Positions 1-42,628 of a stretch of 64,000 nt of DNA are shown in pieces. The notes beneath the pieces were generated by a model. The model was not told the origin of the DNA. It was given only the letters and a program-made list of their open reading frames with translations, and ran no database searches. Numbering within the stretch: position 1 is the first letter of the stretch; the number at the start of each line of letters is the position of its first letter. Source of the stretch: Escherichia coli (GTDB lineage Bacteria > Pseudomonadota > Gammaproteobacteria > Enterobacterales > Enterobacteriaceae); NCBI RefSeq assembly GCF_024223415.1, contig NZ_CP100500.1, one strand, 5' to 3'. Made by a program: the position numbers and the translations under genes.

Positions 1-5563
<5,563 letters not shown>

Positions 5564-5875
5564 GCTTACCTTCCCTGAACGAGCTAACATAAATGCGCCC
5601 TTTCTAGCACAGCGAAAAAATGTAAATCCTGATAGCAATATGATTGAAAATTAATAACTTTTCGTTAAGCAGTTTTGGGTGTGAGTTGCAAGAGGGGAGA
5701 CTACTGAATTACTCAAGTTTTGTAATCGAGGGGAAAATGGTGATGGCGTTCATAGCAAAACGCCCTCAACCATAAAGGTCGAGGGCGCTTAAGATGTCAA
5801 AAACCCGCTATCCGTTAAAAAGCAATGCTCAACTAAGGTCAGTGACATTGCGCTAAAAAGCGAATTTTTAGAATT

Positions 5876-5951
5876 TGGCTCCTCTGACTGGACTCGAACC
5901 AGTGACATACGGATTAACAGTCCGCCGTTCTACCGACTGAACTACAGAGGA
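5876..5951 (-). tRNA. asnT: tRNA-Asn (GTT)
   Basis: Reverse complement reads TCCTCTGTAGTTCAGTCGGTAGAACGGCGGACTGTTAATCCG...GAGGAGCCA with cloverleaf and CCA end. Confidence 0.9.
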
Positions 5952-6051
5952 ATCGTGAGAACGGGGCGCATATTACTTAGCGGTACCTTGTCTGTCAACA
6001 CTAAATTTCATAAGTCATTTCAATTGGTTAATTAATCCGCAAAGTTGTTAA

Positions 6052-6849
6052 TTAATGAACATTCGTCGCCGAAAACGAGTCTGTATCATTAGCGTGATGC
6101 AGTCTCTGCAAAGGATCTTGTTGATAAAATTGGCAGAAACGTTGCCACAATGAAGGGAAACGAGGAGCAAAAAGTTCTGGGGCGCTAAAGAAATATTCAG
6201 AAAGTACGGCAAAACACTCAGCAGGATCACTGGCAGCATAAGCATCGATGCTCGCCGCATTCTCGCCAACTAATTCGATTTCTTCCTGAATGTTGTTCAT
6301 TGCAGCATGAAGATCGTGTTCCCAGCCAGCAACCTCACGCAACGGAATAAAGGGAACTCCGCTGGCGCGATCGCCGTTACGGGTGTCCAGCTTATGAGCG
6401 ACTTCATGAATAATCAGGTTAAAACCAGAAGCATCAAAAGAATCTTGTATATCCAACCAGTTCAAAACGATAGGCCCTTGCTGCCAGCTCTGACCTGACT
6501 GAACAATACGTTGGTTATGCACCAGACCGATATCGTCTTCCCATTCGTCATCGACCACAAATGGCGCAGGATAAATTAAGACTTCATGAAAACCATCCAG
6601 CCATTCCAGTCCTAACTCCAGAACGGGCAGGCAAAATAGAAGTGCTATCCGGCAGCTTCTTAATGAATCCAGTTCAAAGTCCTGTAAAGGAACAAGCCGC
6701 TTTTGCTGTAAAAAACGTTCGGCAAGAGTGACTAATTTGCTTTGTTCCTGTTCCGTCAGACACGTTAAAAGGGGGATCGATAGTGCTTCCTGCCAGGGAA
6801 GGGCAGTTTGATGTGCTGATTCTTGTACTTTCCAGGGCCACTTAATCAT
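6052..6849 (-). CDS. mtfA: Mlc titration factor A (265 aa)
   Basis: ORF 6052..6888; product begins [28 protein letters not shown] at internal Met; length matches MtfA. Confidence 0.85.
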
Positions 6850-33165: not shown

Positions 33166-36490
<3,325 letters not shown>

Positions 36491-36704
36491 CGCGCACCTC
36501 GTGGCTGATTATGGACGGCGTTATTGGCAAAGTGGAACAAGACTCACTCCCGGGTCAGCAAACTCGAAAAATTGACGCTGCCATTATTTGTGCTTTCGTT
36601 TTTTTCTATCCGCCAATAAACCCGTTTTTTTGTTGCTATTTAGCGCCTTTGTCTTATTGACTTACTGGTAGGCTTTGCTACCAGAAATTATCCAGGAGAC
36701 GAAA
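36491..36704. promoter_or_regulatory. Divergent fliF / fliE class 2 (FlhDC-dependent) promoter region
   Basis: Intergenic region between divergently oriented fliF and fliE; assignment from conserved flagellar regulon architecture, sites not individually mapped. Confidence 0.4.
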
Positions 36705-37019
36705 ATGTCAGCGATACAGGGGATTGAAGGGGTTATCAGCCAGTTACAGGCTACGGCGATGAGTGCGCGTGCACAGGATTCACTGCCGCAACCGACCATT
36801 AGTTTTGCCGGGCAGCTGCACGCCGCGCTCGATCGCATTAGCGATACACAAACAGCTGCCCGCACGCAGGCAGAAAAATTCACCCTCGGTGAACCCGGCG
36901 TGGCGTTAAACGATGTGATGACCGATATGCAAAAAGCCTCAGTTTCTATGCAAATGGGGATTCAGGTGCGTAATAAGCTGGTGGCCGCGTATCAGGAAGT
37001 GATGTCCATGCAGGTGTAG
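36705..37019 (+). CDS. fliE: Flagellar hook-basal body protein FliE (104 aa)
   Basis: [104 protein letters not shown]. Confidence 0.95.
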
Positions 37020-37352
37020 GTTTTGTAACCTGTTGTTAATTACTTCCAATCTCACCGCTTGGGGCATGGATGGGGCAAACTCACTCAATTTCTGGTTTAA
37101 AATGGATACCTGATCCTGAAAGTTTTCTGCCATCCACGATCCGTAAACGCGATAACATGTTTTGTCTTCGCTTTGCTCATAGGAAGAGTGAACTCTTTTG
37201 TTAGCCTGGGGTTCCTTCTGATCATTATTGTTCCTGCCTTTATCTCTTGCCACGCCAGAGCCCCCTGGATACACATACACCAGGATGAAAACGGTGAGTT
37301 GTGTTCAAACTGTAGTACAATTCTCTCCAGTATGAACAGGAAAGAATATGCT

Positions 37353-37685
37353 ATGAACCCTTATATTTATCTTGGTGGCGCAATACTTGCAGAGGTCATT
37401 GGTACAACCTTAATGAAGTTTTCAGAGGGGTTTACACGGTTATGGCCCTCTGTTGGCACAATTATTTGCTATTGTGCATCATTTTGGTTATTAGCTCAGA
37501 CACTGGCTTATATACCTACAGGGATTGCTTATGCTATCTGGTCAGGAGTCGGTATCGTTCTGATTAGTTTGCTTTCCTGGGGATTTTTTGGCCAACGACT
37601 GGACTTGCCAGCCATCATAGGCATGATGTTGATTTGTGCCGGTGTGTTAGTCATTAACTTGTTGTCACGAAGCGCACCGCATTAA
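37353..37685 (+). CDS. emrE: SMR-family multidrug efflux transporter EmrE (110 aa)
   Basis: MNPYIYLGGAILAEVIGTTLMKFSEGFTRLWPSVGTIICYCASFWLLAQTLAYIPTGIAYAIWSGVGIVLISLLSWGFFGQRLDLPAIIGMMLICAGVLVINLLSRSAPH; conserved Glu14. Confidence 0.9.
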   Translation: MNPYIYLGGAILAEVIGTTLMKFSEGFTRLWPSVGTIICYCASFWLLAQTLAYIPTGIAYAIWSGVGIVLISLLSWGFFGQRLDLPAIIGMMLICAGVLVINLLSRSAPH

Positions 37686-37853
37686 AAAATAATCATCCTT
37701 GAGATAACAGGAATCTGATTTGTGCATATTATGGCTAATGTTCGGGGCAACTTTATAATTATGATTGCATTTGCGCGATCATTGCGCCTTTTTGCATAAT
37801 GAGATCAATGCACATCAAATAAAATAACGATAGGTCACAACAAAGAGGTTTTT

Positions 37854-38405
37854 ATGAAAAAACTTATCGTTTCAAGTGTATTGGCATTCATAACATTTTC
37901 TGCGCAGGCCGCAGCATTTCAGGTCACTAGTAATGAAATAAAAACAGGAGAGCAACTTACAACGTCTCATGTATTTTCTGGATTTGGGTGTGAGGGGGGT
38001 AATACATCGCCCTCATTAACCTGGTCTGGTGCTCCAGAAGGCACCAAAAGCTTTGCCGTAACTGTGTATGATCCAGATGCGCCTACAGGCAGCGGATGGT
38101 GGCACTGGACTGTTGCTAATATTCCAGCAACGGTAACATATTTGCCCGCTGATGCAGGAAGACGTGATGGTACAAAACTTCCGACTGGTGCTGTCCAAGG
38201 CCGAAATGATTTTGGTTATGCGGGATTTGGTGGAGCATGTCCTCCCAAAGGAGATAAACCCCATCATTACCAGTTTAAAATATGGGCTCTAAAAACTGAT
38301 AAGATTCCTGTGGATTCTAATTCCAGCGGAGCGTTAGTTGGTTATATGCTTAATGCCAATAAAATTGCAACCGCTGAGATAATACCCGTTTATGAGGTAA
38401 AGTAG
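37854..38405 (+). CDS. ybcL: Secreted PEBP-family (Raf kinase inhibitor-like) protein YbcL (183 aa)
   Basis: Signal peptide MKKLIVSSVLAFITFSAQAAAF, PEBP motifs (YDPDAP, HHYQFKIWAL). Confidence 0.85.
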   Translation: MKKLIVSSVLAFITFSAQAAAFQVTSNEIKTGEQLTTSHVFSGFGCEGGNTSPSLTWSGAPEGTKSFAVTVYDPDAPTGSGWWHWTVANIPATVTYLPADAGRRDGTKLPTGAVQGRNDFGYAGFGGACPPKGDKPHHYQFKIWALKTDKIPVDSNSSGALVGYMLNANKIATAEIIPVYEVK

Positions 38406-38414
38406 GATAAGAGT

Positions 38415-39212
38415 ATGCTGGCAAAAGATAGGACTAACCTAAAGATTGAAGAAATACGGATGCATAAACATCATGAGATTCACAGGGTTAAGCCTCTTAT
38501 GCCAGCTTTATGTCGTATCCGTCAGGGAAAAAAAATTATCAATTGGGAGACGCATAGTCTAACTGTTGATAATAATCAGATAATATTATTTCCCTGTGGA
38601 TATGAATTTTATATTGCGAATTACCCAGAAGCAGGTCTTTATCTTGCAGAAATGCTTTATTATCCCATTGATCTAATTGAAAAGTTCCAAAATCTTTATG
38701 CGATAACCGATCAAATTCGTAACACGACAGGTTTCTGCTTACCTCAGAATCCCGAGTTAATATATTGTTGGGAGCAACTAAAAACATCTATTTCCCGAGG
38801 CTTCTCAACGCAAATTCAGGAACACTTAGCAATGGGCGTTCTACTTTCATTAGGAGCACATCATGTTAATTGTTTACTTTTATCAGATAGTAAACAATCA
38901 TTAATAAGTCGTTGTTATAACCTAATGCTATCCGAACCTGGAACAAAATGGACAGCAAACAAGGTAGCGAGATATCTCTACATTTCTGTTTCCACATTGC
39001 ATCGCCGTCTGGCAAGCGAGGGAGTAAGTTTTCAAAGTATATTGGACGACGTGAGGTTAAATAATGCGTTGTCTGCTATACAAACGACAGTAAAACCCAT
39101 CAGCGAGATTGCCAGGGAAAATGGTTACAAGTGTCCTTCTCGTTTTACTGAAAGGTTCCATAATCGTTTTAAGATAACACCAAGAGAGCTAAGAAAAGCG
39201 TCCAGAGAGTAA
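38415..39212 (+). CDS. ybcM: AraC/XylS-family transcriptional regulator YbcM (265 aa)
   Basis: C-terminal AraC HTH ([47 protein letters not shown]...[20 protein letters not shown]). Confidence 0.85.
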
Positions 39213-39503
39213 AAGTATTTTATGAAGGAGCAACAGCATAGATTTTTATTTTGGAAAATAAATACGGCATACTCAACCTATTGGAGCCTGAACAATCCGG
39301 TGACTTCTGCGCTAATCGGGGACGTTTATAAGCACATATAATTGATACTATCTTCCTCCATCACAATTTCAGAAATGCACGTGTGATTTTTTTGCATCCG
39401 GCGTTTGGACTATGTGGAGTTCAAGAGTGGGAAAGTTACAAGAGGTTGAGGGGATAATTAAAGGGATGCTTATGACATTAGATATCCGGATAGGTACGGA
39501 TAT

Positions 39504-39543
39504 CGTTGTTATTAAATCTAGTTCGTTGTTATTAAATCTAGTT
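39504..39543. repeat. Perfect 2-copy tandem direct repeat of a 20-bp unit (CGTTGTTATTAAATCTAGTT)
   Basis: Two adjacent identical 20-mers inside AT-rich non-coding DNA. Confidence 0.9.
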
Positions 39544-40175
39544 TATACGTTAAGATGCAGCTACAGCAGAAATTGCCACTGTTAATTTTTTCATCGTGAG
39601 CCTTTTATTTGAACTATTATTTAAAAATGATGTCACTGCACTACAAATATTCATCCAATCAATGAGATTATTTCAAGATGTAAGTTTTAGTTTCTCATTT
39701 AAATTGTGAAGTAGATCCCTATCTTTATCTGAACTGTTTCTATTGCACACAATGCATGACTATTTTGTGAACGAATATAAATTTGGTAGTTAAATTATAT
39801 TAAAGGTTGTTATTTATGATTGACTCATAATTTATTTATTTAATTTAAATAGCCTAGAAATAACCATGGAAATTATTTGCATGATGTTTGTTTAGATTTA
39901 TTAATGTAATTGAGGTGGTTTTATTTAATACGCAATATAGCGCCGCTTGATATTAGTTCTATTTTTTTTGCGTAAGATAGATGAGACAAACTGAGACGCA
40001 TAATGGTTTGCAAGGCTCTAATACTTTGATGTTGAGGATGTGATGGGGCATGTACGGGGCATAGTACAATGATGTCCATGCTGGTGTAGATAATCTCCAG
40101 GCTTATCCGGTGCGCCGTAAAACCCCGTCCTTCAGGGCAGGGATATAAGGCGTGGTTTTCCACCTGACCAGGTGT

Positions 40176-40595
40176 TTGCTGTTGTTCAATGTATTGGCGG
40201 ATGACGGATATTGGCGCACCTCCGCAGCTACTGGCAAAATAGCCAGGACTCCACAAAACGCCTTTGTAGTAATACCTGACTGCAATATCTGGTCGATCTC
40301 GTCGCAGTCACCTACCCGATACGCCTTTGAGGCTGTTTACCAGACTGGATATCGCCAGTTTGGGAGGATAGTTAATTAACAAATGGACGTGATCTGGTTC
40401 GCCATCCATTTCAACCAGTTCAGCTTCAAAATCAGCACATACATTTGAAAAGTAAGTGCGTAGTTTTTCTGTCGCGTCATGGTCAAAAATCTGACGTCGG
40501 TATCTGGTGACAAAGACCAGGTGAACATGCATCAGGAAAACACAATGCCTTCCACGCCGGATATCGGTTTCTTTTTTCACAGACCAAAGTATCAT
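40176..40595 (-). pseudogene. tnpA: tnpA (HUH Y1 transposase of IS200/IS605 family) interrupted by an in-frame TGA
   Basis: N-part MILWSVKKETDIRRGRHCVFLMHVHLVFVTRYRR...EPDHVHLL (HUH motif) ends at TGA 40308..40310; same frame continues LRRDRPDIAVRYYYKGVLWSPGYFASSCGGAPISVIRQYIEQQ (catalytic Tyr region). Confidence 0.75.
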
Positions 40596-40602
40596 TTGGC
40601 CT

Positions 40603-41811
40603 GTGAAACGACTACAAGCATTTAAATTCCAGTTAAGACCCGGTGGTCAACAGGAGCGTGAAATGAGGCGCTTCGCAGGCGCATGTCGTTTCGTTTTCAA
40701 TCGTGCTCTGGCACGTCAGAATGAGAATCATGAGGTCGGTAATAAATACATCCCTTACGGGAAAATGGCTTCCTGGCTGGTTGAGTGGAAAAATGCCACT
40801 GAAACGCAATGGCTTAAAGATGCCCCGTCACAGCCATTGCAACAGTCACTGAAAGACCTTGAGCGGGCTTACAAAAACTTCTTCCAGAATCGGGCTGCTT
40901 TTCCCCGATTCAAAAAGCGGGGACAGAATGATGTATTCCGCTACCCGCAGGGCGTTAAGCTCGATCAGGAAAACAGCCGTATTTTTCTGCCGAAACTGGG
41001 CTGGATGCGCTACCGGAACAGCCGTCAGGTCACGGGTGTTGTGAAAAATGTCACTGTCAGCCAGTCCTGCGGTAAGTGGTACATCAGTATTCAGACAGAA
41101 AGTGAAGTATCAACTCCGGTTCACCCTTCAGCATCAATGGTCGGGCTGGATGCTGGCGTGGCTAAACTCGCCACGCTGTCAGATGGCACAGTCTTTGAGC
41201 CTGTAAACAGTTTTCAGAAAAACCAGAAGAAGCTGGCGAGACTTCAGCGACAGTTAAGCCGCAAGGTCAAATTCAGCAACAACTGGCAGAAGCAGAAACG
41301 CAAAATACAGCGACTGCATTCCTGTATCGCAAATATCCGCAGGGACTACCTTCACAAAGTCACAACGACCGTCAGCAAAAACCACGCAATGATAGTCATT
41401 GAGGATTTGAAGGTCAGCAACATGTCAAAGTCAGCAGCGGGTACGGTCAGCCAGCCGGGGCGCAATGTCCGGGCAAAATCAGGTTTAAACCGTTCGATAC
41501 TGGATCAGGGCTGGTATGAAATGCGCCGCCAGCTTGAGTACAAGCAGCTCTGGCGTGGCGGTCAGGTGCTTGCTGTTCCGCCAGCGTACACAAGCCAGCG
41601 TTGCGCGTGCTGTGGTCATACAGAGAAAGAAAACCGCCTGTCACAAAGTAAATTCAGATGCCAGGTATGTGGATATACAGCGAACGCCGATGTAAATGGC
41701 GCTCGTAACATTTTAGCGGCGGGGCACGCCGTTCTTGCCTGTGGAGAGATGGTGCAGTCAGGCCGCCCGTTGAAGCAGGAACCCACCGAAATGATTCAGG
41801 CGACAGCCTGA
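40603..41811 (+). CDS. tnpB: TnpB (IS605 OrfB family RNA-guided endonuclease), apparently intact, 402 aa
   Basis: RuvC-I ([12 protein letters not shown]), RuvC-II ([11 protein letters not shown]), zinc finger CACCGH...CQVCG, RuvC-III ([10 protein letters not shown]). Confidence 0.85.
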
Positions 41812-41850
41812 ACGTAGCAGGGATCCTCGTCCTTCAGGGCGTGGAGGATG

Positions 41851-42522
41851 TCAACAAACAGGTTGAATTAACTCCGCGCCCTGGTTTTTGACATTACCTA
41901 CCGCGCGCGATACCGGGTGCCAGGTGAACTGGTTTGCTGGCACACAGCCGTTGGTAGCAATTTCTGATGCTTCTTTACCGCCAATCTCTTGCCGCATCCA
42001 TTCCTGTGCAGCTTCTGGCGACAGAACCAGCGGGCGGCGGTCATGAATATCTACCAGACCCTGGTCTGCTGCTGCAGTGACAATTAAAAATCCTTCGGCT
42101 TCGTCACCGCGCTCAAACGGTGTGCTACCTATCGCGGCCATAAAAACAGGTTGTCCATCAGCGCGATAGATAAAATAAGGCTGTTTTTTGTCGCCTTCTT
42201 TTTTCCACTCAAACCAGCCATCGGCAAAACAGATTGCCCGACCATGTTGCCAGAGCGGTTTAAACATACGACTGGTGGCCGCAGTTTCTACGCGGGCGTT
42301 AATCAGCGGCGGTTTATCCCACCATCCGGGAGCATATCCCCAGAAAACCGGATCCAGATGAAGGTGTTCATCACGTTCACTGAGCAGAAGAACTTTGGTT
42401 CCCGGCGCGACGTTGTATCTGCCAATGGGTTCGGGATCGTAGGGAATATCGCGTTCAATATCTTCCGCGAGAAGCGCAAGGTAATCTTCACGCGTTTGGG
42501 ATTGGGCAAAGCGTCCACACAT
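41851..42522 (-). CDS. yedK: SRAP-family abasic-site processing protein YedK (223 aa)
   Basis: MCGRFAQSQTREDYLALLAEDIERDIPYDPEPIGRYNVAPGTKV..., N-terminal Cys2 nucleophile. Confidence 0.9.
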   Translation of the reverse strand: MCGRFAQSQTREDYLALLAEDIERDIPYDPEPIGRYNVAPGTKVLLLSERDEHLHLDPVFWGYAPGWWDKPPLINARVETAATSRMFKPLWQHGRAICFADGWFEWKKEGDKKQPYFIYRADGQPVFMAAIGSTPFERGDEAEGFLIVTAAADQGLVDIHDRRPLVLSPEAAQEWMRQEIGGKEASEIATNGCVPANQFTWHPVSRAVGNVKNQGAELIQPVC

Positions 42523-42628
42523 AGAAACCTCCTGAGATCATACTGAAAAGAATAGGAGAGGGGGCGGGTAAAATCTATGTGTCAGAGGCAACGATGTTCC
42601 CGCTGTGGGCCACAGCGGGAATGAGGGA

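Follow-up and report, generated by a model that had tools for sequence, protein, structure and literature searches.

The 888-bp interval at positions 39213-40100 of the 64-kb window (the whole stretch of E. coli DNA that was analysed) is no anonymous spacer but what decay has left of the right end of a DLP12-like lambdoid prophage, which lies at the 3' end of fliE. From left to right it comprises a ylcH fragment, the tail of a Q antiterminator gene, a deletion junction, a porin gene stump and the porin upstream region, and a 20-bp sequence in the Q tail is perfectly duplicated. Taken as a whole, the explanation that this is a decaying prophage end with a neutral, slippage-type repeat in a dead Q tail is very probably correct.

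The duplication consists of CGTTGTTATTAAATCTAGTT twice head-to-tail at 39504-39543 (+), with zero mismatches on direct reading of the window. TRF called it at 39503-39543 (period 20, 2.0 copies, 100% matches, no indels), and a separate direct-repeat search returned the same two 20-mers at 39504-39543. It is the sole perfect full duplication with a period of at least 10 in the window, and the longest run at such periods (21) was reached by none of 200 block shuffles, whose maximum was 14. The duplication claimed in the earlier note is thus real, and the same site carries one to five copies elsewhere. The 20-bp unit has no internal symmetry and a predicted structure of 0.0 kcal/mol. A terminator-like scan returned an inverted repeat with an 8-bp stem (GATATCCG / CGGATATC) at 39481-39504 (+), which abuts the array. 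This is Q-coding sequence that folds at -7.2 kcal/mol as DNA, and one might speculate that it favours polymerase stalling beside the array. A search of 36500-42600 with Rfam, run with a permissive threshold, found no RNA family within the interval; its only two hits, both sub-threshold, lie inside the neighbouring IS element.

The island to which the interval belongs is bounded by two copies of the fliE 3' end, detected as a direct repeat. The last 20 bp of fliE (TGATGTCCATGCAGGTGTAG; 37000-37019, +), whose ORF ends at 37019, form an attL-like left boundary, and an attR-like copy (TGATGTCCATGCTGGTGTAG) lies at 40070-40089 (+). These copies are 19/20 identical and enclose the whole emrE-ybcL-ybcM island. 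Comparison with K-12 identified an integrase-gene relic at 37020-37156 that is common to both (intG, "cryptic prophage PR-G"); identity between window 36300-37156 and the fliE/intG region of K-12 is 98%, the backbone match breaks at 37156 inside this relic, and it starts again exactly at 40090. This boundary repeat, the return of the K-12 backbone right behind its second copy and the intG relic of K-12 at this site together make the fliE 3' end look like a lambdoid phage integration site. The island thus combines a repeat of the target-gene 3' end at both boundaries with an adjacent integrase remnant and phage gene order. A GGGGCAT motif at 11-bp spacing is found just inside both island ends, at 37060-37077 (TGGGGCATGGATGGGGCA) and at 40044-40067 (TGGGGCATGTACGGGGCATAGTAC), the latter returned by both TRF and the direct-repeat search; these motifs may be relics of recombinase-binding sites. 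The right-end island DNA at 39932-40069 is present in the corresponding locus of strain M1/5 (L001), and no match to it was found in DLP12 or in the phage collection.

The island is colinear with DLP12, the identity being 92% for emrE (37277-37690), 90% for ybcL and ybcM together with the initial 79 bp of ylcH (up to 39407), 83% for the 3' end of quuD (39429-39520) and 82% for the 5' end of nmpC with its upstream region (39554-39931). The left neighbour of the interval is ybcM (38415-39212, +), which encodes an AraC-family regulator; its 265-aa ORF is annotated as ybcM in orthologous loci and has approximately 90% DNA identity to the DLP12 gene. In strain CFSAN061772 (L003), where the interval is 100% identical to the window, ybcM (3204-4000) is annotated as frameshifted (797 bp), whereas the window has an intact 798-bp ORF. 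DLP12 (emrE-ybcK-ybcL-ybcM-ylcH-...-quuD-nmpC-essD) and the island have a common gene order at 82-92% DNA identity, and the porin is inactivated in both, by a 1222-bp deletion in the window and by an IS5 insertion in K-12 nmpC. They differ in chromosomal site; the island lies at the 3' end of fliE, a position occupied in K-12 by the PR-G/intG relic. In contrast to DLP12, the island has no ybcK between emrE and ybcL, no lysis genes and no structural genes, and everything between the 3' end of ylcH and the 5' end of quuD is likewise missing. The GC content of the interval is 33.2%, compared with 49.1% for the whole window, and the proposal that this is horizontally acquired DNA is well supported by a prophage relic with DLP12 colinearity, a phage gene module and a boundary repeat. 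Of the earlier note's picture of foreign DNA silenced by H-NS, the AT-richness and the foreign origin are established, and the silencing itself is a conjecture.

The left part of the interval holds the remains of two phage genes. Window 37754-39407 aligns to DLP12 locus 4794-6447 and so reaches into ylcH (6369-6470), which indicates a 5' remnant of ylcH with an internal stop at 39329-39407 (+; start approximate), whose translation LPPSQFQKCTC compares with LPSQMQKCTC in YlcH. This is followed at 39429-39523 (+) by the final ~30 codons of a Q antiterminator gene of the quuD type, identified by blastn to the DLP12 quuD 3' end (83-88% DNA identity), by alignment with phage Q genes and by BLASTP to residues 98-127 of the 127-aa QuuD (63% identity, E 7e-11). 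A complete Q frame of ~127 codons with its own start is absent; the ~30 codons are fused to the ylcH fragment, and the Q remnant is a pseudogene fragment, not a gene. The segment 39407-39429 is the older deletion junction that joins the 5' part of ylcH to these codons, and relative to DLP12 this deletion lost ybcN-ninE-ybcO-rusA-ylcG and most of quuD.

In single-copy alleles the 20-bp unit covers the final six codons of the Q remnant and reaches one base into the stop codon. The Q tail ends in DIVVIKSN before the stop in M1/5 and in DIVVNNSN in QuuD; across the repeat, the frame reads KLQEVEGIIKGMLMTLDIRIGTDIVVIKSS and continues in the window, while it stops after DIRLGTDIVVIKSN in M1/5 and after KAEGIIEGMLMALDIRLEMDIVVNNSN in K-12 QuuD. 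The longest ORF wholly within the interval (57 codons, 39412-39585, +) lies in this frame and crosses the repeat; in the single-copy state the ORF across the site has only 37 codons. The repeat had been suggested to disrupt a small gene remnant. A gene remnant is indeed present, matching QuuD residues 98-127 at E 7e-11, but the duplication did not break it, because the 5' three-quarters of the Q gene had already been lost in the older ylcH-to-quuD deletion and the single-copy ORF spans just 37 codons. An independent small gene was also considered and rejected; the 37-codon ORF is merely the Q tail, and no genome annotates a gene there.

The right part of the interval is explained by the loss of a porin gene. 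When the 888-bp interval was searched by megablast against 5,426 complete E. coli genomes, the query was split at the repeat, with positions 1-311 and 342-888 matching different partners, and the right part adjoined or fell inside a gene annotated as a porin. The M1/5 locus has the order fliE, emrE, ybcL, ybcM, porin gene and yedK; the porin has 360 aa, is encoded on the opposite strand and scores 520.8 bits for the NCBIfam OmpC subfamily, above the cutoff of 484. Window 39000-39520 corresponds to L001 3245-3765 and window 39554-40107 to L001 5001-5556, and direct reading of both sequences places a 1222-bp deletion at 39553/39554, where L001 3779-5000 is missing. The junction has no microhomology. 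Lost in the window are all porin codons from the 15th through the stop, the porin terminator hairpin (L001 3803-3822, -) and the -10 element of a predicted late promoter (TTGATA-18-TATTAT) just after the Q-remnant stop, and the full-length beta-barrel coding sequence that is present in M1/5 is therefore absent.

What is left of the porin is a stump at 39550-39594 (-), comprising an ATG and 13 further codons (MKKLTVAISAVAAS) with a TAA supplied by the junction, within an ORF at 39550-39654 and continuous with the M1/5 porin; MKKLTVAISAVAAS is identical to residues 1-14 of K-12 NmpC, in the N-terminal signal peptide. Upstream of it, 39595-39931 (-; 26-32% GC) is the orphaned 5' untranslated and upstream region, which is 98% identical to that of the intact M1/5 porin and 81.6% identical to that of DLP12 nmpC, phage homology extending to L001 5379 (window ~39931). 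The description of the interval as a gene-free spacer therefore has to be revised, since two-thirds of it derives from a deleted porin gene, whose 5' end and upstream region are left here as orphans. No gene is annotated at the interval in any RefSeq genome listed among the matches. The accompanying statement that it contains no ORF of 60 codons or more holds for internal ORFs, the longest of which has 57 codons. It does not hold at the right end, which is overlapped by the only longer ORF touching the interval (111 codons, 39921-40256, -, TTG start); this ORF begins inside the IS element and is read-through of a broken tnpA frame, not a gene.

The intact allele belongs to a known type of phage module. 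Lambdoid phages PhiR34_1, ev243, ev099, 2G7b and Perceval carry a Q-porin-holin module with 87-92% identity to it; the module is also represented by nmpC in K-12, and the porins of PhiR34_1, ev243 and Perceval are annotated as OmpD/OmpC. The likeness extends to the Q 3' end, the convergent porin, the AT-rich DNA upstream of this porin and a shared terminator hairpin (GGGGCG..CGCCCC). We take lc of phage PA-2 to be a further member of this group. Unlike these modules, the window retains only the two ends (30 Q codons, and 14 porin codons plus the upstream region), its Q tail is duplicated and there is no holin.

The orthologous site was read directly in twelve loci besides the window; the segment that holds the array can be delimited by GGTACGGATAT and TACGTTAA. 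Alleles with an intact porin have one copy of the 20-mer (L001 and L012), as do K-12 DLP12 and the three phages that were read, and all seven sampled database rows for intact-porin alleles show the single-copy span. Among porin-deleted alleles there is one copy in L002 and L010, two in the window, L003, L006 and L007, three in L005 and L011, four in L004 and five in L009. A spread sample of 17 rows from the ~1,070 genomes with the deleted allele and its upstream region gave match spans of 242, 261-262, 282 and 322 bp and comprised two one-copy, 11 two-copy, three three-copy and one five-copy allele. Multi-copy arrays were thus seen only where the porin is deleted, a result that comes from samples (nine alleles read plus seven and 17 sampled rows) and not from a census. 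By the same spread sampling, which again is no census and gives only rough shares, the present allele accounts for ~20% of complete genomes, a further-deleted ST131-type allele for ~20% and the intact porin for ~8%.

The earlier note took the presence of the same two-copy arrangement within a conserved functional element in other genomes as an argument against its reading. The arrangement does recur, but the repeat is not within such an element. Its suggestion of a replication-slippage footprint fits the polymorphism of one to five copies that other E. coli show at this site. Its alternative of a duplicated attachment site does not; the two 20-mers are directly adjacent and flank nothing, and the att-like repeat sits instead at 37000-37019 and 40070-40089. 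An origin as the target duplication of an IS was likewise rejected, the nearby IS200/IS605 element being 565 bp away and having made no duplication.

Could the two copies in the window be an assembly or sequencing artefact? This is a general possibility for short repeats, and nothing more specific speaks for it. Two-copy alleles occur in independent complete genomes, including CFSAN061772 and ECCHD184 (100% identity), strain 042 and O111:NM, and the two-copy span is found in 11/17 sampled full-length matches; moreover, every read length used today exceeds the 40 bp of the array. The identical two-copy alleles in many independent complete genomes exclude an artefact for practical purposes, and we give it next to no credence.

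The order of events can be read from the deleted alleles. The junction ACGTTAA/GATGCA is identical in all nine that were read, which indicates that the porin deletion happened once. In L002 the 20-mer occurs once, with the ancestral GATACG behind it and next to this junction, which argues that the porin deletion preceded the duplication. The 3-, 4- and 5-copy arrays differ solely in the count of one internal variant unit (TGTT...AGTT), and this variation by whole internal units is the pattern that stepwise slippage predicts. Two features are less easily placed: flanking microhomology for the first duplication amounts to just 1 nt, and multi-copy alleles have a G-to-T change just after the array, for which simple duplication does not account.

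These features bear on the alternative that a single complex rearrangement, such as template switching, produced both the porin deletion and the adjacent duplication. The array is just 10 bp from the junction, multi-copy arrays are seen only in deleted alleles, and a junction lacking microhomology together with the G-to-T change between array and junction would fit an error-prone event. However, two kinds of deleted allele, the ST131 type with GATACG and the ZH48 type with TATACG, are single-copy with an identical junction, the ancestral GATACG of L002 indicates a one-copy deleted ancestor, and variation from two to five copies requires slippage anyway. We consider a single event improbable, though less so should the single-copy deleted alleles be contractions, and favour stepwise decay. 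In this stepwise reading, a DLP12-like lambdoid prophage integrated at the fliE 3' end, and an old deletion brought a ylcH fragment up against the last ~30 Q codons. A later 1222-bp deletion without microhomology took an nmpC/ompD-type porin from codon 15 on, together with its terminator, and left the 14-codon stump and the AT-rich porin upstream region. The 20-bp unit, the tail of the dead Q gene, would have been duplicated once by replication error after the porin deletion, and from two copies slipped-strand mispairing would have lengthened and shortened the array to the one to five copies of present-day strains. The genomic context suggests that the array is without function and that its variation is neutral.

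A functional array, providing regulator binding sites or a length-variable transcript element, was weighed against this neutral reading. In a related version, the orphan porin promoter, now without a terminator, would drive an antisense transcript into ybcM-ybcL-emrE, and copy number might tune these neighbours. The porin terminator (L001 3803-3822, -) is deleted, and the scan found no terminator-like site on the minus strand from 39553 to 39100; the porin upstream region is kept at 98% identity, and copy number is heritably variable. Against function, the unit is the Q coding tail and is single-copy wherever the module works, there are one to five copies without a preferred state, the unit has neither symmetry nor structure (0.0 kcal/mol) and there is no Rfam match. 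The promoter scan returned one weak promoter-like site, at 39803-39774 (-), and such sites are rarer than in shuffled sequence (one against a mean of 4.9). A functional array is accordingly very unlikely, and we regard the antisense version as equally doubtful. There would be consequences if it were true, in that copy number (1-5) would heritably tune expression of ybcM-ybcL-emrE, ybcL included, a prospect to which we attach very little weight. A uropathogenic ybcL variant suppresses neutrophil migration (PMC4810123).

The right neighbour of the interval is an IS200/IS605-family element (40108-41855), recognized from the empty site in L001 and from annotations in L003. It comprises a broken tnpA (40164-40595, -) and an intact tnpB (40603-41811, +; 402 aa, NCBIfam TnpB 387.8 bits). 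The element lies at the yedK stop codon without a target duplication, the empty site in M1/5 being GGCTTATC/AAACAGG, and its insertion makes yedK 223 codons long as opposed to 222. Subterminal direct repeats are present at 40123-40143 and 41825-41845, and the tnpB 3' end (41738-41781) gives a sub-threshold Rfam match to RAGATH-18 (25.4 bits against a gathering threshold of 44.9, E 0.2).

Further rearrangements are found in other strains. In L002 (strain 2/0; the same allele occurs in EC958 and other ST131 genomes) a second deletion at 5281-5340 connects the porin stump with the frame of tnpA via a common 8-bp sequence, GCAGCTAC, whose window equivalents are 39557-39564 and 40225-40232; it takes the whole porin upstream region and the island right end, and one copy of the 20-mer is kept. 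Extra IS elements are present in L007 (IS2, 3734-4962), L010 (IS1, 2097-2794) and L011 (IS1, 1-456). The locus thus keeps gaining insertions within or beside the relic.

The closest known systems are ordinary bacterial VNTRs, DLP12 and the lambdoid Q-porin-holin module. As in the VNTRs used as MLVA loci and attributed to slipped-strand mispairing, short units are arranged head-to-tail, copies are perfect or near-perfect, and copy number at the orthologous site differs by whole units, from one to five among strains. In contrast to VNTRs in genes or promoters, this array lies in a non-coding prophage relic and no phase-variation consequence is apparent. To our knowledge the locus is not part of the known E. 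coli MLVA panels, and a literature search on the ybcL/ybcM/emrE/nmpC island and on Q-porin modules found context only and no description of this repeat.

The finding carries little biological weight; it turns an unexplained spacer into accounted-for prophage decay, a good example of its kind that would not surprise a specialist and gives no reason to treat the interval as a candidate new element. The array is nevertheless a clean polymorphism of one to five copies, carried by about one in five complete E. coli genomes, and might be used as a typing marker. Between fliE and yedK it forms part of a series of events, namely integration, internal deletions, porin loss, repeat expansion, IS insertion and secondary deletion, a readable record that could be of use for following the history of lineages or recombination here.
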